From IMG/VR virus record IMGVR_UViG_2671180710_000027: 11,178 nt of DNA; one strand, given 5' to 3'. Positions 1,017 through 11,178 of this stretch are shown here, in pieces. This DNA is from a virus. Lineage: Duplodnaviria; Heunggongvirae; Uroviricota; Caudoviricetes. The position numbers and the translations under genes were made by a program. Numbering within the stretch: the first letter of the stretch is position 1; each line of letters starts with the position of its first letter. A model generated the notes under the pieces. It was not told the origin of the DNA. It worked only from the letters and a program-made list of their open reading frames with translations, and ran no database searches.

Positions 1017-1098
1017 TGCTGGTGGCGGGGGTCGAACCCGCATACATGATCAGCCTGTACAGGCTGGCACCGACTCTACCCGTTGAGCGTACACCAGC
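1017..1098 (-). other. tRNA-like sequence (degenerate; probable attachment-site relic)
   Basis: Minus-strand read gives a perfect 7-bp acceptor stem (GCTGGTG / CACCAGC), a perfect T-arm (GCGGG-TTCGACC-CCCGC) and a D-arm resembling GCTCAGTTGGTAGAGC. The anticodon region is a 5-bp stem with a 6-nt loop inside the palindrome AGCCTGTACAGGCT, spacers are oversized, and no CCA is encoded. Confidence 0.5.
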
Positions 1099-1977: not shown

Positions 1978-2274
1978 CTAACCGACTGTTCCGGCTCTGT
2001 GCTTATTTCTGGTAGCTACGCCAGATTTTTTACATCTCCCTCCTATCCCCATTTCTGCGTAAGTGCGGTTTACTGCTTTCCTCAGGTCTGCGTAGTTCTC
2101 CTCTGGCGGCTCCGGTGGCCTCTGTGCCTTCCCGTAACACTCTGCCCTGCGCATTGCCACCCGTTCGCGTTCCCTGTCAGTCTCCACCAGCATCATCACT
2201 TCGGCCCATCGCGCCGCCGCTCTCCGGTAAAAGCCTTTCGACTCCAGTTCTTCCGCTATGCGGTCATGTACCAT
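1978..2274 (-). CDS. PerC-family transcriptional regulator (PerC/Pch-like)
   Basis: 98-aa ORF beginning MVHDRIAEELESKGFYRRAAARWAEVMMLV, recalled as the PerC family N-terminal signature. GAGGGGG lies 6 nt upstream of the ATG at 2272-2274. Confidence 0.65.
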   Translation of the reverse strand: MVHDRIAEELESKGFYRRAAARWAEVMMLVETDRERERVAMRRAECYGKAQRPPEPPEENYADLRKAVNRTYAEMGIGGRCKKSGVATRNKHRAGTVG

Positions 2275-2285
2275 CGTTCACCCCC

Positions 2286-2540
2286 TCAGAACGGAATATT
2301 GTCACCGCAGGGGTCATAACTTCCCGCTGGTGGCTGATTGCTCTGTGTGCCTGTGGTACTGCGTCTGCTCCCGCCTGGACGCGTCGCCCGTGCACTGATT
2401 ATGCTGTCCGCTATGACCTGATAACCCTGCCGCGTTTCCCCGTTCTGTCCGGTCCACTGGCTTACCTGCATCGTGCCGGATACGCTGATTACGTTGCCTT
2501 TCTCATATCCTGCCAGTCGGTCGGCCTGTCTGAAAAACAC
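2286..2540 (-). pseudogene. 5'-truncated single-stranded DNA-binding protein (ssb remnant retaining C-terminal tail)
   Basis: The 84-aa ORF aligns to the C-terminal half of SSB (SQWTGQNGETRQGYQV against RKWTDQSGQDRYTTEV) and ends ...GDNIPF, like the SSB DDDIPF tip. The frame opens with GTG at 2538-2540 directly after an in-frame stop at 2547-2549. No SSB N-terminal OB-fold sequence was found in any frame upstream. Confidence 0.6.
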
Positions 2541-2865
2541 GCTTTCTTAAACAATGCCTAAAAGCCGATTTTATGGTGCTTTGAAACGGTTTTTAAAATG
2601 GCGCTCGTGGTGTACTCTCTGGCATTCAATGGCGCTCTGTGATGTGGCTGGTGGTATGTGGCCGCCATGCATAATGGGGCTGATTTTGTTCATGGCCCGG
2701 CAATGGGTGAGCATTTTTTACCATATTCAGGGTAACAATGGGCGAAAAAGTTCATTTCTGGCATGGCCTGAAATTCCATGCAGCCCGCGCCGCGTGTGCT
2801 CTTGCCGGGGAAAACGTCGCGGAATAATGACCGCACCCCACCTTATGGCGGTGCAGTCCCACGAA

Positions 2866-2956: not shown

Positions 2957-3247
2957 TTATCTGGTGTGGTCGTAGTTCTGCCGTAGTCGTTCACCCTCAG
3001 CGCAATGACGCGGTTTTTTAACGCCGCTGGTAGCACAATGCGGGCAGGTCATGACGTGGCTGATATACGCATCACGGGCAGCCAGCCACGCCGCAGACGG
3101 GGCGCACATATCCGCCAGCGTCTGGCCGTTGCTGGTGGTGTTGTCTTCCGGCCATGTTTCGGACTGGTGCGCTTCCTGTAAATCCGGTGCAGGTAATGCC
3201 CGGATAAACTCACACAATGCATCCGGCAGGCTGAATAACTTATGCAT
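2957..3247 (-). CDS. Hypothetical small protein with Cys/His cluster (possible mosaic ORF)
   Basis: 96-aa ORF with ATG at 3245-3247 and no clear ribosome-binding site. Contains CPHC...HC. It carries an in-frame 34-bp segment (3101-3134) nearly identical to part of the helicase gene (4481-4514). Confidence 0.35.
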   Translation of the reverse strand: MHKLFSLPDALCEFIRALPAPDLQEAHQSETWPEDNTTSNGQTLADMCAPSAAWLAARDAYISHVMTCPHCATSGVKKPRHCAEGERLRQNYDHTR

Positions 3248-3670
3248 AAATCTGATGTTCTGAATCGCTGAAAACGTGCGTTTTATGGTGTTTTTTCGTG
3301 ATTTCTGCGTGTTCTGATGTGCTCATTTCGCTGTATCCCTTGTGTGGCGCGGGCTGCGCGTGTGTTTCGGTGTTCTTTTTTGCCGCCAGAAAACGGTAAT
3401 CAGGCATATAAACACGGCTGTAAGCCGCGCCGCGTCTGGCTTCGCGTGATTTTGTGCGCTAAAAAGTGCATTTTTGCCCTTAAAAAGCGTTATTCGTGAT
3501 TCACTGGTAAATGCTCCACATGCCGCGCCATTGCTGGGCTTTTCGCTATTCTGTGTGGTTTTGCTGTTTAACCCGTTTTGCACACTGAAATTGCCTTGCA
3601 TCCAGCGCCACGTAAGGGATTTCCGGGTTTTTATGGTGCGTTTTTTGCCGTGCGTAATATTGTGCAAGTT

Positions 3671-3913
3671 GGTGGGACTGGTGGGAACTGTGGGAACCGC
3701 CTAGAACCACGCGGCTTTCAGTGGTTCCCACCAGTTCCCACGGTGGCTTTTTGTGGGAACCGTGGCGGTTATTTTTTGTTCTCTGTGGTTCCCACCAGTT
3801 CCCGCAGAGTTCCCACTCAAAAACGAACAATAATCATACTGGTGATTTTATTATTTACTGATTTATATATGTTTTATTTTTACGGTTCCCACAGTTCCCA
3901 CCAGTCCCACCAC
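3671..3913. repeat. Iteron cluster with AT-rich core: candidate origin of replication (P4 ori/crr-like)
   Basis: About 11 copies of the octamer GTGGGAAC / GTTCCCAC in both orientations (3671-3698, 3724-3741, 3752-3761, 3789-3816, 3885-3910). They flank an AT-rich stretch at 3817-3884 and lie immediately downstream of the helicase gene. Confidence 0.65.
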
Positions 3914-3946: not shown

Positions 3947-5785
3947 TTATTCATCAATTGCGAATAACAATGCATTCTGGTCGATGGCGTAAACGCGGTG
4001 TTTTTCCCCGTTAACGGAAACGCGTTTTGTGTATCGGCGTTTCCCGTCCGTGTCGCGGTCAACAATCGCGCCAGCATCATCAAGACTGGCCGCTATGCGT
4101 TTCAGGTCGTAGCCGCTGGCCGCCTCACATAGTGCTTCCGGTAAAAACCAGTAAACCCGGTCGCCGTTGCTCCCCGGTCGCCACCATCCGGCGCGGTTGC
4201 TTACTGGTTCGCTGTATGTGTTGCCCCCTTCAAAGCGTGAGGCATGGCGGGCGATAAACCCGGCGACGGCCCGGAGTATTTTCACGTCCTCCGATTGCCC
4301 CCGGCCACGATAGTCCGACCACGCAGCAAACATCGCTTTCACCGCCTCCAGTGCTTCGCCCTGTTTCCACGGCAGAATCCCGGCAGTTATCGCCATTTCA
4401 CCGGCCAGTGCGCACAGTGTGAAACGCGCGGCGGCGCGCGCCTCCTGCCCGGTGCTTACGGGGAATTGTTCGCGCAGTATGGCGTACATATCCGCCAGCG
4501 TCTGGCCGTTGCTGTCGGTGCTGGTGGTGTCACTTTCATTGCGGGAAATCAGCCAGCGCACAAACTCCGGCCCGGCGTGGCCGTAATGGGTGGCCGCATT
4601 ACCGCGCAGCGTTTCGGCAAATTTCCGGCCTGCTCCACGGCGTTCTGTGTCGTTGTCGGGGTTGTGGGGTAGTGCCATTCCGTGGAGGCAGTCAAACGCC
4701 CCGTAAAGCCGCTGTGCCGGAATATCCAGTAACCGCATTTCCTGCCCGGCCTTGATGCGCTGACCACCGCTTTCCATGTGTTTACCCACGGTCATTTCCC
4801 CTGTGGAAATAATCATGGTGCGCCATGTGTTGACCGGGCGGGCCATGCCGGACACCTTGCCACGCTGGCGGCCTGTTCCGTTGCCAAGCTGATAAATCAG
4901 CCCGCCAATATCTCTGGCCGGGGCTTCGCCAATTTCATCCAGTATCAGCGCGGTATCGTTCCGCATGGTCGCCAGCCCTTCAAGCCCGGTGCTGGTGGCG
5001 TTCCAGTTGCGTTTAAAGTTGCGGGGTTCTCCCCATACGCTACAGGCCACCAGCGCCCCCACGCTTTTCCCGCTGGAACTGTCGCCCATGAAATGAAATC
5101 CGCCGCTGTCCACATCAAGCAGCCACAGCAACGGCCCGGCGAGTGATGCACACACTGCCAGCATGGCTACCGGGTTTCCCCGGCATAATGCGGCCACGTT
5201 GTCGCGCCAGCCCTCCGGCGTTCCTGCGGTGGCGTACTCCTGTGAGCCTGCTTCTGTTGACTGAAACACCACATCACCATCACCGATAACCCCGCCCGGC
5301 ATGACAAACAGGGTCGGGGAGTGCCACCCGGTGGCCGTAGCCGCGAGCGCCCGTCGTTTTGGTGCTGACTCCATGATGTATTCGGTCAGTGCCTGCCGTT
5401 GTTTGTAGGGAATGGTAACGCCCATGCGCAGCAGCTCCTGTCGGAGTTCTCCGCCGTCTCCGGCGAGCATTTCCATCGGTGCGGCCCATTCCCGCCACTG
5501 GCCTGACGGCGTGAGAAAACGGAGTAATCGCCCGTAGTTTTCGTCTTTGCTGTCGCTGGTCATGGCGATAACCTCCAGCGGGGAACAGATAAACGTGTCC
5601 GTGTTGGTTGAGTCGCGCACGCCGTGCCAGTAAAGGCCGGGTTTCAGTATCTGGCCGCCGTCCACCTGTACATGCTGCGAATAAGTGGCGTAGCCCGGAC
5701 GTGCCGGGCTGACTTTGGGGTGTTTCTTGCGTGGTGGTTTTCGCTTCCCGGATGTGACCGGGGTTTTAGTGGTTGTCCGGGTCAT
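3947..5785 (-). CDS. Replicative helicase, SF3/P-loop NTPase (P4 alpha C-terminal-like, DUF927-type)
   Basis: 612-aa ORF with Walker A GDSSSGKS and Walker B LILDEIG. Its ATG at 5783-5785 overlaps the primase 3' end by 20 bp. Confidence 0.85.
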   Translation of the reverse strand: MTRTTTKTPVTSGKRKPPRKKHPKVSPARPGYATYSQHVQVDGGQILKPGLYWHGVRDSTNTDTFICSPLEVIAMTSDSKDENYGRLLRFLTPSGQWREWAAPMEMLAGDGGELRQELLRMGVTIPYKQRQALTEYIMESAPKRRALAATATGWHSPTLFVMPGGVIGDGDVVFQSTEAGSQEYATAGTPEGWRDNVAALCRGNPVAMLAVCASLAGPLLWLLDVDSGGFHFMGDSSSGKSVGALVACSVWGEPRNFKRNWNATSTGLEGLATMRNDTALILDEIGEAPARDIGGLIYQLGNGTGRQRGKVSGMARPVNTWRTMIISTGEMTVGKHMESGGQRIKAGQEMRLLDIPAQRLYGAFDCLHGMALPHNPDNDTERRGAGRKFAETLRGNAATHYGHAGPEFVRWLISRNESDTTSTDSNGQTLADMYAILREQFPVSTGQEARAAARFTLCALAGEMAITAGILPWKQGEALEAVKAMFAAWSDYRGRGQSEDVKILRAVAGFIARHASRFEGGNTYSEPVSNRAGWWRPGSNGDRVYWFLPEALCEAASGYDLKRIAASLDDAGAIVDRDTDGKRRYTKRVSVNGEKHRVYAIDQNALLFAIDE

Positions 5786-6809
5786 GCTCCATTTCCCATA
5801 GCATCAAATCGTTAAAGTCGGAAAGGTCTGGTGATGCACCGGGCGGCCATTCCGGGAATGTGACGTAACATCCGGCCAGCAATGCGGCTTCGTTGGCTGC
5901 TCTGGAACCGGGGTTGCCTTTTGATGCCCGGTCATCATCCCCGGCGATAACGAGAGATATGCGCGAGCCGTATCGTTCACGCAGCGCCATAGCCACATGT
6001 TTAAGGTTTCCCGCATTCATGGCACACACCACGGCCATGACGTTCCAGTACTGGAGAAGGGCGGCCCCGGTGGCCCACCCCTCACACACGTAAACGTCAT
6101 GTTCCGGCGCTTCCGGGGCCATCAGGTCAAAGCTCCCCATAACATGGAAAGCCCCCTGCACCTGACCATCACGGAGAAACATTTTTCGACCGTCCGGGCT
6201 GATAATCTGCACGTTCACCACTTCGCCGCATACGTTGTACAGCGGGACAAGCAAATCATTACCCGACTGATACAGATTGCCGGGCTGTAGCCGTTTTTTC
6301 ATGAGATAGGGATGAGAAGGGGTTGCCACCTCCGCCCGGCCAAGCAACTCAAAGGCCCGGCAGGCGGTCAGTTTCTGGCGCTGGTGGCGTTGTTGCTGCT
6401 CCCGCTGGCGGAGTCTGCCCGCCTCCTGTTCTGCGGCCTGTACCCGCACCCGTTGCGCCTCCCGTTGTTCGCGGGTCATTACATCAGGTTTGCCCAGTGC
6501 GGGCAGGCACAGCCCCAGCCTGTCCGCCACAATACGGGCGGCATCAGTCTGACGCACATTCCACAAATAAGCCCCCAGCGCCACAAGGTCGCCGCCGCTG
6601 TCCCCGGTGGCGAAGTCGTGCCAGCATCCGTCCACCAGCGAGACGAAAAAACTGCCCGCGTGACGGTCTGCACGTGTGGGGTTACGGCACACCCATTCAG
6701 TGGCCTGCCGTTTACCTTCGGGCAGCCATTCAGGAACAAGGATTTCCGCATGTTGTGCCGCCACTGCGGCAACGCTGCGGATTGCGTTAATCGTGGCTAT
6801 GTCACGCAT
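5766..6809 (-). CDS. TOPRIM-domain DNA primase (P4 alpha N-terminal-like)
   Basis: TOPRIM motifs VYVCEGWATG and LVIAGDDD. Preferred start is the ATG at 6807-6809 (GGGAGGG upstream, MRDIATINAIR...), not the TTG at 6885-6887 used by the ORF track. Confidence 0.85.
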   Translation of the reverse strand: MRDIATINAIRSVAAVAAQHAEILVPEWLPEGKRQATEWVCRNPTRADRHAGSFFVSLVDGCWHDFATGDSGGDLVALGAYLWNVRQTDAARIVADRLGLCLPALGKPDVMTREQREAQRVRVQAAEQEAGRLRQREQQQRHQRQKLTACRAFELLGRAEVATPSHPYLMKKRLQPGNLYQSGNDLLVPLYNVCGEVVNVQIISPDGRKMFLRDGQVQGAFHVMGSFDLMAPEAPEHDVYVCEGWATGAALLQYWNVMAVVCAMNAGNLKHVAMALRERYGSRISLVIAGDDDRASKGNPGSRAANEAALLAGCYVTFPEWPPGASPDLSDFNDLMLWEMEHDPDNH

Positions 6810-7116: not shown

Positions 7117-7405
7117 GGCTTACCTCCCCGGCCTGCTGGTCGTAACACTCCATCAGTTCGGCCATACAGCCAATGAGGGCAGGGGCTGTCTGTAGAAATC
7201 CGGCTAATTGGCAGATCTCGTCTCTGGAATAGGTGATGGGGTTTTCGCGTAACTGGCTTCCCTCCAGTGCCTTACCAACAAAGGCAATCCCCGCCAGTAA
7301 ATTCACTCTGTGCCAGTCGGCATCAACGCGCAGAATCCAGTGGCTTTCTTCGTCCGGCATACTGCTCATGGCGGCTTTCATTGACTCACGCAGACAATCA
7401 CGCAT
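7109..7405 (-). CDS. Hypothetical acidic protein (98 aa from ATG 7403-7405)
   Basis: The ORF-track start at 7435 is a TTG. The ATG at 7403-7405 sits in an ATGCGTGA overlap with the upstream stop and has GGGGG 6 nt upstream. Confidence 0.5.
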   Translation of the reverse strand: MRDCLRESMKAAMSSMPDEESHWILRVDADWHRVNLLAGIAFVGKALEGSQLRENPITYSRDEICQLAGFLQTAPALIGCMAELMECYDQQAGEVSHV

Positions 7406-7862
7406 GGCGCGCCCCCTGACGAATACGGGCGACAAAAATCATATGCGCGTGCGGTAGCTGCGCGCGTGCTTCGCGTTCTGTTGCCGCCGTGACGGTAAAG
7501 AGCGAGGTTTGTTTTTCCTGGCACTGCATAAAGCGCCAGACAAAGTAAGGGCGTGCGAATACAGCCATGTGAAAGGCTCCTATGTTTGAGGTAAGGAGTC
7601 TCGCTACTACGCTGCTAAACGGGGTGGCGAGACGTAACGGGGTTAGCAGACTGGCAACATAGAAACCAGCGAGCGCAAAGGCTCCCCCGTCACGCCCCGC
7701 CATAATGCGGGTATGGGTAGGTTTACGGACACAAAAAAACCGCATATCGGAATGTAAGCGGCTGTCCGCTATGTTATTCAGGCTGCTAAACCCGGTCACC
7801 ATGTGGGTGACTCCGGCATCATACAGCCCGAAAGAAGAGGCGATCAACATGTTTTTAAGCAT
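7398..7862 (-). CDS. Ash/Icd-like family protein (long form 154 aa; possible short form 7398-7568)
   Basis: C-terminal 56 aa (MAVFARPYFVWRFMQ...HMIFVARIRQGARHA) is paralogous to the Icd-like protein upstream. The long start at 7860-7862 overlaps the upstream stop (ATGCTTAA). An internal ATG at 7566-7568 has GGAG 8 nt upstream, so the true start is ambiguous. Confidence 0.5.
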   Translation of the reverse strand: MLKNMLIASSFGLYDAGVTHMVTGFSSLNNIADSRLHSDMRFFCVRKPTHTRIMAGRDGGAFALAGFYVASLLTPLRLATPFSSVVARLLTSNIGAFHMAVFARPYFVWRFMQCQEKQTSLFTVTAATEREARAQLPHAHMIFVARIRQGARHA

Positions 7863-8052: not shown

Positions 8053-8481
8053 TCTGGCAGCCTCCTTTTGCAAATTTAAGGAGTCACCGCCTGAGTTTCC
8101 ACGCTCATAAGGGGCGGTGACGCTGGCGGGGGTGGAAATACCGGCGCAAAAGGAAACCGGCCAGCCTTTCGGCTGCCCCACCAGCGCCACCATAGATACA
8201 GTGCGGGCCTTGCCGCTGTTCATGGTTGCGCGATGGCACGACACAAAAAAAGACGCTGGGCGCGTCTGTGTCGCCTTTTGCTCATTAAACGGGTTTCCAC
8301 GCCCGGCTGGTGGATTTACACCAGCCGGGGAAATATAACGCCCACCAGCGATGGCAGGCAAGCAATATTTGCGGTTGCCGCCCATTCTGTGGGGCGTGTG
8401 GTGGTTGTTTTGGGCGTGAGAACGCCCCGGCCCTGTTGCGGGCCTTTCTGGCATTTTCATGATTAAAATTCTCTGACGGGG

Positions 8482-8688
8482 TTAATTGCGCGTGCTGGTC
8501 GTGCCTTTGCGGTCAGCGAGCCACTGGCGGATAGCGGAAACATCAAAGCGGCTTACGCCATCGCCCAGCTTATCCGGGCTGGGGAATTTACCTTTTTTAA
8601 CCCAGTTCCATAGCGTCGATTCGCTAATCTGAAAATGGTTTATCACCTGTGCCGGGCGCATATAGCCGGATTTGGGTAAGGTATCCAT
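8482..8688 (-). CDS. alpA: AlpA-family phage regulatory / excisionase-like HTH protein
   Basis: 68-aa ORF with an HTH (MRPAQVINHFQISESTLWNWVKKGKFPSP) followed by RFDVSAIRQWL, typical of AlpA/Xis-type proteins. AGAGG lies 9 nt upstream. Confidence 0.8.
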   Translation of the reverse strand: MDTLPKSGYMRPAQVINHFQISESTLWNWVKKGKFPSPDKLGDGVSRFDVSAIRQWLADRKGTTSTRN

Positions 8689-8857: not shown

Positions 8858-9811
8858 TTATCTTTTTGCTTTTGCGTTTCCGCCCAAAATTTTCCATTCA
8901 TTGGGTAAGCGTCTGGCATCAGATAATATTTTTGCTATTCGTCCCGCGTCAGGTGTTGGGGTGGGATTGCCATCCCAGAACAGATAACCGTGTTTCTCTA
9001 TGGCTTCGGCATGTGATTTAAGTGTCTTGCCAACATCTTTAGGGAAGTGATACGCCACGTACAGGGCAGCCGCGAGAACCTTTTCACGTTCCAGCGCGAA
9101 TCGCTCCACACCGCCGTGTATATCATGCTTTTCCTGATTCCTGTCATCTGTCGGTTGTTCTGTGCGCTGGTAGCCGGGCCTTTGTGCAAGTATTTTTTGC
9201 ATGACCATCATTTCTGAATCGGTAATGCGCAAATTCTTTTTTTCCGGGGCGTTTATCCGGCGTGAGCCGCCACGTGGTGTAAAGGTTGCTGTAACTTTGG
9301 ACAGTGAAGGGGTATCGGTGTACGGTTTTAATGTGAATGTGTCCTGTGCGTGAACGCGCGAGAACTCGGCGTAAGGTACAGTCCATAAGCCATACAGGAG
9401 AACATCCGATACAACCATAAGTTTCCCGTCATGTACCTGCGCGTCACTATGGTTGCTGTCAAAGTAGAACCCGGATTGTGAGTATTGATGGTAAACATTT
9501 CTCCAAATCAATATTGATTCAGGTTCGTTGTCATTGGGGAAAAGCCTGAGTTTCTCCCCTTCTTCCGGTTGTAGTAATTCAGGTGGGAAATAATCGTTTG
9601 TTGCTGGCGCTGAAATACTGGCAATGTTCCACGGCTTGGCCGGATATCCCCACTTGTCGTAATCCGTGTAGCTTTGGCGGTTTATGGAACTTTCCGGGCC
9701 GAAATCAAGTGCGATTTTTATTGTCCCTTTAGCCCATTCAGTCAGTATTTTTTTTTGAGTACACCCCAGTATGCTGGCGGCTGTATCAATAGGGTATGTG
9801 TTTTCATACAT
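8858..9811 (-). CDS. Hypothetical protein (317 aa), AT-rich cargo gene in the integrase-alpA slot
   Basis: Long uninterrupted ORF with ATG at 9809-9811. Composition is markedly more AT-rich than its neighbours. The N-terminus has an HTH-like stretch (IDTAASILGCTQKKILTEWAKG). No catalytic motif recognised. Confidence 0.6.
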   Translation of the reverse strand: MYENTYPIDTAASILGCTQKKILTEWAKGTIKIALDFGPESSINRQSYTDYDKWGYPAKPWNIASISAPATNDYFPPELLQPEEGEKLRLFPNDNEPESILIWRNVYHQYSQSGFYFDSNHSDAQVHDGKLMVVSDVLLYGLWTVPYAEFSRVHAQDTFTLKPYTDTPSLSKVTATFTPRGGSRRINAPEKKNLRITDSEMMVMQKILAQRPGYQRTEQPTDDRNQEKHDIHGGVERFALEREKVLAAALYVAYHFPKDVGKTLKSHAEAIEKHGYLFWDGNPTPTPDAGRIAKILSDARRLPNEWKILGGNAKAKR

Positions 9812-9906
9812 GGTTTACGTTACCTTTGACGCTACCTTAAAAATAAACCGGGGCAGGCGGTAAGGTTTCCCGCTTTTCGCGCCGTCGCGCTATCCCCGGT
9901 ATGTTT

Positions 9907-11178
9907 TTATTTTGCAATCGCTTTTGTGATGGGGGTTACGTTGTATTCATCCCCCTGTTCCAGAGCCACCAGCAGGTCGGCCCATAACTCCAGAGCGTGG
10001 CGGCGTTCATTGAAATACTGATGGCGGTTATAGATACCCTCAACGCCTTTAATTCGGTGGTTCAGGCAGCGTTCCGCCACTACAGGGTCTACCCCAAGCG
10101 CGGCAAGGTGAGTTCTGGCTGTGCGTCGGAAATCGTGAACGGTAAAACCCGGCACACCAGGCATTTCCCGGCGAACCTTAGCCAGCGCAACGGGCAGGGT
10201 GCTTTCCTGTATGTGTGGAATCATGCGCTGTTGCATTTTGCGGGCCGGAAGCACCCAGCGGCTACCGCCTGAAATGCTGTGTAATTCGCGCAACCATGCC
10301 ACCGCTGGTGGCGGTAGTGGGATATCAATGGCATCCCCGTTTTTAGCCCGTTCGGCAGGGAGTCGCCATACAGCACTATCTAAATCAAATTCATCCCACT
10401 GTGCGGCGCACAACTCCATTTTTCGGCAGCAAAGGCAAAGTATCAGTTTCATGGTGAGTTCATTCTCACGGCTGAATCCTTTAGCTGTGCGCATGGCCTG
10501 AAAAAAATGAATGAGTTCATCACGGGTTAGCCATCGGTCGCGGCTTTTTTCAGCCCCACCAGCATCTGATAACTCAAAAGCAGCGGCGGGGTTTGTTTCC
10601 AGTGCGTGGCGTTTGATGGCGTAGTCGAATATCCGTTTAGTCCATCGCAAAACATCATTGGCGACTGTTGGCGCTCCGCGGTCAATAATGCGCTGTAGCA
10701 TTGCGTCAATATGGCGCGGTTTAACGTCTTCGACTTTCAGGCTGCCAATCTGAGGGTTGATATCTTTGTCTATGCGGCGGCGGAGAATATCGGGATGTTT
10801 CCAGCGGGGTAGTATTTGCCGTTCGTAGTATTCGGCTGCCAGTTCTGACACGCGAAGGGCGTTTTTTTCTTCCTCAATCCGTGCCAGTGCCGCCGCTTTT
10901 CGGGCCTGCTTTTCTCCGGCCACGTCATGGCCCAGCGCAACACGGGCGGCCAGTTCTTTAACGGTGGCGCGGGCTTTACTTAGTGACAGGTCGGAATATG
11001 AGCCGATGTGCATAGCACGTTGTTTCCCGGCCATCCGGTAACGATAGCGCCAGAATGGGGCGTTATATTTTTCAGGGAAGCACAAATACAGGCCGTTACC
11101 ATCGGCGCGGGCATCAAAGCGTTCCCCGGCCTTTATCCACGCCTTTATCTGAATATCCGTTAACTTCGCCTTTGTCAT
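9907..11178 (-). CDS. int: Tyrosine site-specific integrase, P4 family
   Basis: 423-aa ORF whose N-terminus (MTKAKLTDIQIKAWIKAGERF...GNGLYLCF) resembles the P4-type arm-binding domain. The C-terminus carries the catalytic motifs HDFRRT and LNH...GIYNRHQY. The start codon is at the window edge. Confidence 0.9.
   Translation of the reverse strand: MTKAKLTDIQIKAWIKAGERFDARADGNGLYLCFPEKYNAPFWRYRYRMAGKQRAMHIGSYSDLSLSKARATVKELAARVALGHDVAGEKQARKAAALARIEEEKNALRVSELAAEYYERQILPRWKHPDILRRRIDKDINPQIGSLKVEDVKPRHIDAMLQRIIDRGAPTVANDVLRWTKRIFDYAIKRHALETNPAAAFELSDAGGAEKSRDRWLTRDELIHFFQAMRTAKGFSRENELTMKLILCLCCRKMELCAAQWDEFDLDSAVWRLPAERAKNGDAIDIPLPPPAVAWLRELHSISGGSRWVLPARKMQQRMIPHIQESTLPVALAKVRREMPGVPGFTVHDFRRTARTHLAALGVDPVVAERCLNHRIKGVEGIYNRHQYFNERRHALELWADLLVALEQGDEYNVTPITKAIAK

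Follow-up and report, generated by a model that had tools for sequence, protein, structure and literature searches.

A segment of a replicative helicase gene inside a small zinc-type gene of an Escherichia coli island: probable scar of a short non-allelic exchange

Two neighbouring genes of a chromosomal island of E. coli, one for a replicative helicase and the other for a protein of 96 residues (ORF96), carry the same short DNA segment in the same reading frame. How did a piece of one gene come to lie within the other, and does it serve any purpose there? The locus was examined in a window of 11,178 nucleotides (IMG/VR record IMGVR_UViG_2671180710_000027), the whole stretch of DNA that was analysed. 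The following features are directly involved:

3947-5785, minus strand: DUF927 (Cch/D5-like) replicative helicase of 612 aa (Pfam DUF927, E = 7e-83; PHROG DNA primase/helicase)
4481-4530, minus strand: donor copy of the segment inside the DUF927 helicase, codons D419-A435 (DTTSTDSNGQTLADMYA); core at 4481-4514
Between the helicase and ORF96: intergenic region of 700 nt
2957-3247, minus strand: ORF96, a small Cys/His protein in which a variable linker with the patch connects an N-terminal helix to a conserved C-terminal zinc-type domain
3101-3141, minus strand: recipient copy (the patch) inside ORF96, codons N36-A49 (NTTSNGQTLADMCA); core at 3101-3134
2969-3088, minus strand: zinc-type domain of ORF96, approximately residues 54-93

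Positions 3101-3134 (GGCGCACATATCCGCCAGCGTCTGGCCGTTGCTG) and 4481-4514 (GGCGTACATATCCGCCAGCGTCTGGCCGTTGCTG) are identical at 33 of 34 nucleotides; the sole mismatch pairs 3105 with 4485, and the exact run covers 29 nt (3106-3134 and 4486-4514). Without gaps, the match extends to 39 of 43 positions (3101-3143 versus 4481-4523; pairwise BLASTN, E = 7e-11). If a single 9-nt gap is allowed in ORF96, the codon listing gives 40 identities in 41 positions (3101-3141 versus 4481-4530), the helicase copy having nine extra nucleotides (4511-4519). Both genes read the patch in frame on the minus strand (...EDNTTSNGQTLADMCA in ORF96 and ...SDTTSTDSNGQTLADMYA in the helicase), and the copies are spaced by 1380 nt, that is 460 codons, a multiple of three. 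The initial annotation of this DNA had described a 34-bp near-identity with one base different, the peptide SNGQTLADM in frame in both copies, and weaker similarity beyond the core with a 9-bp indel; our alignments agree with it in each of these respects. It had also named confinement of the match to a low-complexity stretch, with no similarity on its flanks, as grounds for discarding the observation. The 5' part, composed of ACC/AGC codons, is indeed of low complexity, but the 3' part (CAG ACG CTG GCG GAT ATG) is not.

The copies are identical at synonymous positions in the codon alignment, and the boundaries of the patch are sharp. Namely, BLASTN of ORF96 against the helicase gene returned the 43-nt match only, and the codon alignment of the two copies shows complete divergence after GCC and before GAC. 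Homology of the two proteins beyond the patch, as could be read from BLASTP (EFIRAL/EFVRWL and LPDALCE/LPEALCE, the latter with E = 0.12), was considered and rejected, since there is no DNA similarity at these places. Both peptides are native to both families, patch-less orthologues included, and are therefore not part of the duplication.

The window is a 100% match to an E. coli chromosomal island located between yicC and dinD, all genes of which are on the minus strand. Apart from the helicase and ORF96, the island has the following features:

9907-11178, minus strand: tyrosine integrase
9835-9900, minus strand: int-alpA RNA (Rfam, above gathering score)
8858-9811, minus strand: 317-aa open reading frame between int and the AlpA-like gene, without a match in Pfam, PHROG, or NCBIfam
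8482-8688, minus strand: AlpA-type HTH gene
Minus strand: two Icd-like genes, which overlap the two C4 antisense RNA matches and the isrK-like match
8246-8325, minus strand: isrK-like Hfq-binding RNA (Rfam, above gathering score)
8110-8197 and 7620-7707, minus strand: two C4 antisense RNAs inside the Icd-like genes (Rfam, above gathering score)
Minus strand: two small hypothetical genes between the Icd-like genes and the primase
5766-6809, minus strand: Toprim primase (Pfam Toprim_3, RefSeq), encoded upstream of the helicase as its partner in the replication module
3670-3912, between the repeat copies: putative origin, in which nine TGGGAAC iterons surround an AT-rich core and are flanked by a perfect inverted repeat of 30 nt
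2286-2540, minus strand: SSB gene fragment without the N-terminus
1978-2274, minus strand: PerC gene, frameshifted according to RefSeq
Minus strand: Mor-family gene after PerC, followed by the tRNA-like element and dinD
1017-1098, minus strand: tRNA-like element just inside the island end (Rfam tRNA, 35 bits; RefSeq tRNA-Tyr)

Gram-negative phage-inducible chromosomal islands (PICIs) are organised into an int-alpA zone, Bro/Icd genes with C4-like immunity RNAs, a replication zone, and variable late zones (PMC10111431). By the layout criterion of that study, the window belongs with them: int, alpA, pri, and a downstream origin follow one another in the unidirectional four-zone order. The TGGGAAC iterons number nine versus 1.6 expected; they occur in both orientations, and all those of the window fall within 3682-3900, bracketed by the inverted repeat (3670-3699 and 3883-3912). 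This layout, together with the position downstream of pri as in Gram-negative PICIs (PMC10111431), suggests that 3670-3912 is likely the origin of the island. No capsid or packaging genes were present in the window, and the late zone, with its SSB fragment and frameshifted PerC gene, looks decayed. Three further observations concern the island as such. A gene of similar size occupies the position of the 317-aa open reading frame in the Lelliottia island L004. ARAGORN found nothing at the tRNA-like element (1017-1098), the 3' part of which is duplicated 105 nt away (1004-1044 and 1109-1149), with a Chi site in each copy. Also, near 903-939 there is an att-like core, which L007 has at both of its island ends.

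The helicase belongs clearly to its family, with a DUF927 profile score of 279 bits versus the cut-off of 22.6 and a P-loop (GDSSSGKS) with invariant G234, D235, S236, S237, G239, and K240. A match to HTH_56 (Cch HTH) at residues 503-602 reached 21 bits, which is below the cut-off of 26.2; in the structural model, the C-terminal domain is helical with a beta-hairpin. The AlphaFold model has a mean pLDDT of 83.5, which falls below 50 at residues 422-426, and a helix begins at residue 430 (430-438). The source of the patch is the loop that connects the ATPase region with the C-terminal helical/winged-helix part. In the family alignment, GQTLADM[FY]A.LREQFPVSTGQEARA is kept in relatives at 75-96% identity and is recognisable further out, the loop preceding it is variable in length and composition, and the C-terminal sequence that follows the motif remains conserved in relatives of as little as about 45% identity.

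The ORF96 family is different in organisation. As revealed by an exhaustive representative search, its conserved part comprises the C-terminal 40-45 residues (W..ARDAY..H.M.C..C...(P).HC..G..LR..YD), in which R58, H64, C68, C71, C82, and G85 are invariant; everything upstream of the zinc domain is hypervariable, and the linker is unalignable across the family. About 30 representative clusters carry this domain, some of them in tandem. The members, 63-254 aa in length, stand alone and have start codons of their own; their genes are usually located between the origin and a Mor-like gene. The N-terminus (M.KLF.LPDALCEFIR) and the start codon of ORF96 are kept in patch-less orthologues. The matches P0130, P0138, and P0149 were discarded as artefacts, being long low-complexity repeat proteins without HxxxCxxC. 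Close relatives of ORF96 are few, and the scan of species-representative genomes detected them in E. albertii only. ORF96 had no match in Pfam, PHROG, or NCBIfam, no structural match, no sequence match in PDB, and no match in phage records. The H64-x3-C68-x2-C71 arrangement with C82 is reminiscent of the HxxxCxxC motif in the zf-HC2/ZAS domain of anti-sigma factors, which is a resemblance only: Pfam PF13490 (zf-HC2) gave no match to ORF96, and the best relative scored 18.8 bits, below the gathering score of 22.2.

In the AlphaFold model of ORF96, pLDDT exceeds 90 at residues 51-70 and in the zinc-type domain, but is about 50-70 at residues 21-50, where LADM alone forms a short helix. Given these values and the low pLDDT at helicase residues 422-426, the models suggest that the patch sits in a permissive loop of both proteins. 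The gene is also composite at a larger scale. The replication module of the window is collinear with those of the Salmonella islands L005 and L007, at 91-97% identity from position 7127 onwards, and this collinearity stops in the 3' part of ORF96, at about 3003-3034; ORF96 thus spans the border of the replication zone with the late zone. One family member, P0135, combines a different N-terminal half with a C-terminal half of the L007 type. The view of ORF96 as a mosaic, which had been proposed from the repeat, is therefore upheld by the helicase patch as well as by the break near 3003-3034.

The distribution of the patch tells donor from recipient. The ORF96-family genes of L004 (Lelliottia), L011 (Salmonella), L012, and L013 lack it and display neither DNA nor peptide similarity to the helicase motif; in all four islands the small gene lies downstream of the primase/DUF927 helicase pair and an intergenic region, and the helicase has the motif. 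P0160 is a fifth relative of ORF96 without the patch. Comparison of these islands shows that the segment moved from the helicase gene to ORF96, because the motif is native to the helicase family and the ORF96-type genes of five related islands do not have it. All examined members of the close clade carry the patch: the window, E. albertii L009, Salmonella L005 and L007, and the metagenome contigs L015-L018; among 5426 complete E. coli genomes it occurs in 30-32. A single transfer in an ancestor of the E. coli/E. albertii/Salmonella sub-lineage is the parsimonious reading. Both the timing and the single event rest on parsimony, since no patch-less orthologue comes closer than about 54% identity. 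The patch-bearing lineages have ORF96 proteins of 78-94% identity, and selection could also have contributed to its being kept.

Three alleles of the patch were found in ORF96: TTS-NGQ (window), TTSTDN-NGQ (L005), and TDS-NGQ (L018). The L005 allele (TTSTDNNGQTLADM) matches its own helicase gene over 52 nt with 46 identities and is closer still to the E. coli helicase allele. The inter-domain loop of the helicase itself contains one to four tandem ACC-ACC-AGC (TTS) units in Salmonella and E. coli alleles (units counted in L005 8703-8738, P0159, and window 4511-4531), equivalent to one to four tandem Chi sites; in Salmonella helicases, there are two to four. With a 52-nt version in L005 and a third version in L018, the 9-nt gap is best taken as secondary slippage, and the simplest account would be that about 50 nt were copied at first and that the ACC/AGC tract later slipped by 9 nt on independent occasions. 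Repeated conversion may also have generated these alleles.

The initial annotation had pointed to the repeat pair as a substrate for deletion, and one such case was identified in nature. In the E. coli contig L002 (692 bp), window positions 4606-4481 are followed directly by 3134-2535, with 99-100% identity. Both alignments include the 34-nt repeat, and it is within its identical core that helicase-type bases give way to ORF96-type ones. The corresponding partial protein, P0006, reads helicase ...HAGPEFVRWLISRNESDTTSTDSNGQTLADM and then ORF96 CAPSAAWLAARD... in frame. The deletion of 1380 bp fuses helicase residues 1-433 to ORF96 residues 48-96 in a product of 482 aa and removes the C-terminal domain of the helicase, all nine iterons, and the N-terminus of ORF96. 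An island of this type should not replicate, given that the helicase C-terminal domain and the iterons are lost. The evidence for this deletion is one 692-bp draft contig, seen in two samples, in which a fixed, sub-population, or second-copy state is not distinguishable. The junction was absent from all 32 complete genomes carrying the region; its exact pattern had no match in metagenome contigs, and the core had none in viral contigs. A protein search with an artificial fusion query gave four hits only and missed known positives, and is thus uninformative.

Other rearrangements affect the patch as well. In E. coli C311 (L019, NZ_CP062204, 6440-6500), a 484-bp deletion took place between two ACCACCAGC nonamers (window 2646-2654 and 3131-3139), which are Chi-complement nonamers, one of them inside the patch; ORF96 is truncated to 45 aa. 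In E. coli ETEC4090 (L003, CP122620, 6600-10110), the patch of ORF96 is interrupted at window 3128-3135 by an IS26-bounded composite transposon with genes of the aac(3)-IV/aph(4)-Ia type, and 8 bp of the target (CCAGCAAC) are duplicated. The protein P0007, a candidate for a second recombinant at the motif, was rejected because its N-terminus is the end of IS26 from the transposon inserted in the patch. There is also a frameshift in the ACCACC run of ORF96 in P0009 and one further downstream in P0005, and natural substitutions within the patch include T43A in L003 and L44Q in L018. On the basis of the C311 truncation, the IS26 insertion, and the two frameshifts, we argue that ORF96, and the patch especially, would be under no strong constraint in E. 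coli.

We consider it probable that the patch is the scar of a short non-allelic gene conversion or template switch, placed in frame, tolerated, and in kind an ordinary mosaic. About 41-52 nt of the helicase gene would have been copied by such an ectopic event into the hypervariable linker of ORF96. The copied piece would represent the low-complexity inter-domain loop of the helicase and the first turn of the next helix. The scar would look alike after a two-ended template switch, microhomology-primed conversion, or two separate events. Identity that includes synonymous sites argues for recent copying rather than convergent selection. The in-frame copy appears to have been tolerated because both sites are flexible, indel-rich loops; the data indicate no role for the shared peptide, and the patch may well be neutral.

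The copied piece would also have brought along a Chi site. The octamer 5'-GCTGGTGG-3' occurs on the plus strand at 3131-3138 and 4520-4527, the patch codons ACC-ACC-AGC being GCTGGTGG on the opposite strand. RecBCD loads RecA on the 5' side of Chi. In both copies the identical core is on this side; in the helicase copy, nine non-shared bases separate it from Chi. The patch would thus have placed 29-30 nt of identical core on the RecA-loading side. The Chi sites of the window are as follows:

Plus strand: Chi at 1018, 1123, 2326, 2647, 3131, 4520, 4991, 6380, 8306, and 10304
Minus strand: Chi at 1671, 2184, 5047, 6632, 8178, 8342, 9966, and 10556

Finally, the copy would have created a same-orientation repeat pair that flanks the helicase C-terminal domain and the origin. 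Recombination in the core would remove 1380 bp and fuse helicase residues 1-433 to ORF96 residues 48-96. Chi may have had a part in creating the patch or in keeping it, and it may raise the deletion rate.

That the patch is instead a functional module seems doubtful to us, be it a competing or coupling peptide of ORF96 and the helicase that would link the replication and late zones, or a Chi cassette that spreads, as an anti-RecBCD strategy, among satellites of a family selected for extreme Chi density.

It is unlikely, specifically, that ORF96 captured the helicase linker peptide (TTS..NGQTLADM) as a short motif for binding the primase, a replication factor of the host, or a protein of a helper phage or of defence, so that ORF96 would compete with, recruit to, or act as a decoy for the helicase; the DNA identity would then be incidental to selection at the peptide level. 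In favour of this, both genes read the patch in frame, the E. coli, E. albertii, and Salmonella alleles have kept it, its loops are exposed and of low model confidence, which is the usual place of linear motifs, and the motif of the helicase itself is well conserved. However, five related islands have the two genes but no patch, and natural alleles alter it by substitution (T43A, L44Q), gain or lose three codons, shift its frame (P0009), or truncate or interrupt it (C311, IS26). Selection on a peptide also does not call for nucleotide-level identity at synonymous sites, and no binding partner of this peptide is known. The patch was also considered as a shared target of small RNAs and rejected: when both C4-like RNAs, the isrK-like RNA, and the int-alpA RNA were scanned against the transcripts with RNAduplex, the patch windows ranked at 7-56%. 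As a separate observation, the 3' part of the isrK-like RNA (8246-8325), GCGCCCAGCGUCUU, is complementary over 9-11 nt to CAGACGCUGG, which is present in both patch copies (3101-3130 and 4481-4510). This pairing is probably due to chance; shuffled targets reach similar duplex energies.

The abundance of Chi in the island raises the possibility that the patch was fixed or maintained as an extra Chi site in an element selected for very high Chi density, where Chi could shield linear replicating or packaged DNA from RecBCD. Chi is the commonest 8-mer of the window, with 18 sites in 11.2 kb versus 0.5 expected, and occurs on either strand, between genes, and within genes in each of the three reading frames. 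This enrichment extends to L001, L004, L005, L007, L011, and L013, is shared by related islands, and is confined to the islands: L001, L004, L007, and L011 have about 52 Chi sites in about 38 kb of island versus 6 in about 43 kb of flanks. Patch-less ORF96 linkers contain no Chi, which agrees with this reading, as do the tandem Chi sites in the helicase loop of Salmonella. Chi-rich and Chi-poor strategies are known among lambdoid phages (PMC8791490). We nevertheless regard this explanation of the patch as improbable, given that one site added to 17 others is a small gain, that a point mutation is cheaper than a 45-nt copy, and that the copied tract runs 30 nt past Chi. The literature searched gave no description of Chi enrichment in PICI-type satellites.

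The initial annotation had suggested that ORF96 could be the relic of an alternative helicase C-terminus. In that case, an ancestral helicase ending ...SNGQTLADMCAPSAAWLAARD... would have been split by a 1380-bp insertion that carried a new C-terminal domain and the origin. We consider this very improbable and the idea is largely refuted, even though the fusion frame occurs in nature (P0006) and the spacing of the copies is divisible by three. The flanks of L002 are 99-100% identical to the window, so this contig is a recent deletion derivative and not an ancestor. The ORF96 family is free-standing, without fusions to helicases: none of the credible ones among 32 representative hits (63-254 aa) has the ORF96 domain as a helicase C-terminus or is of helicase length. 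Furthermore, the N-terminus and start codon of ORF96 are conserved in patch-less orthologues, the C-terminal domain of the helicase is conserved across its family, and the same gene is found downstream of helicase and origin in five related islands without the patch.

Chance or an assembly artefact can practically be dismissed, in spite of the ACC/AGC codons that make part of the match low-complexity, since the window contains an exact direct repeat as long as 29 nt, versus 11-17 nt for the longest in 200 first-order Markov resamplings, and since the pair recurs in at least 30 complete genomes that are independent of one another, as well as in several assemblies of metagenomes and drafts.

The short exchange that we favour suggests that the patch matters little in itself. 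It offers a clear, datable example of how genes of satellites become mosaic via very short exchanges, and of a scar that seeds further rearrangement, here an in-frame helicase fusion with loss of the origin by which the island would be immobilised. Two features of the island reach beyond the patch and are the more promising leads. ORF96 represents an uncatalogued family of small, predicted zinc-binding proteins at the boundary of the replication and late zones. The island family is approximately ten-fold enriched in Chi relative to its chromosomal flanks, which suggests reliance on, or shielding from, host RecBCD.

Among known systems, the closest for the island as a whole is the Gram-negative PICI (PMC10111431), with which it shares the integrase, the AlpA-type HTH gene, the Icd-like genes with two C4 RNAs, the primase, the DUF927 helicase, the iteron origin, and a variable zone; the late zone of the window differs in consisting of ORF96, the SSB fragment, the frameshifted PerC gene, and Mor. 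Repeats of which more than 20 bp lie 5' of Chi are reported to be those that can enter the RecA homology search; this rearrangement-prone configuration is suppressed in E. coli genomes (bioRxiv 10.1101/351395). As in those Chi-adjacent repeats, Chi adjoins the core in both copies of our pair, but in the helicase copy it is set off by nine non-shared bases.

The fate of the repeat resembles short-direct-repeat deletion in E. coli: the copies have the same orientation, the crossover in L002 is inside the repeat, and the C311 deletion occurred on a 9-nt repeat. As Bi and Liu are said to have reported in 1994 (cited in bioRxiv 10.1101/351395), such deletion in E. coli is RecA-dependent above roughly 23-27 bp of identity and proceeds by RecA-independent slippage below it. 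With 29 nt of exact identity, our pair exceeds the minimal processing segment of about 23-27 bp. The difference is in the product, which here is an in-frame protein fusion with the putative origin also lost.

The origin of the repeat finds its counterpart in the ectopic gene conversion and mosaic patches described for genes of phages and mobile elements. There, too, identity of some tens of bases begins and ends abruptly within unrelated genes that have no flanking homology, and the donor side is ancestral and the recipient side derived. In comparison with the usual mosaic patches, the putative exchange studied here is distinguished by a donor and a recipient that are two genes of one element, 1.4 kb apart, and by a copy that is in frame.
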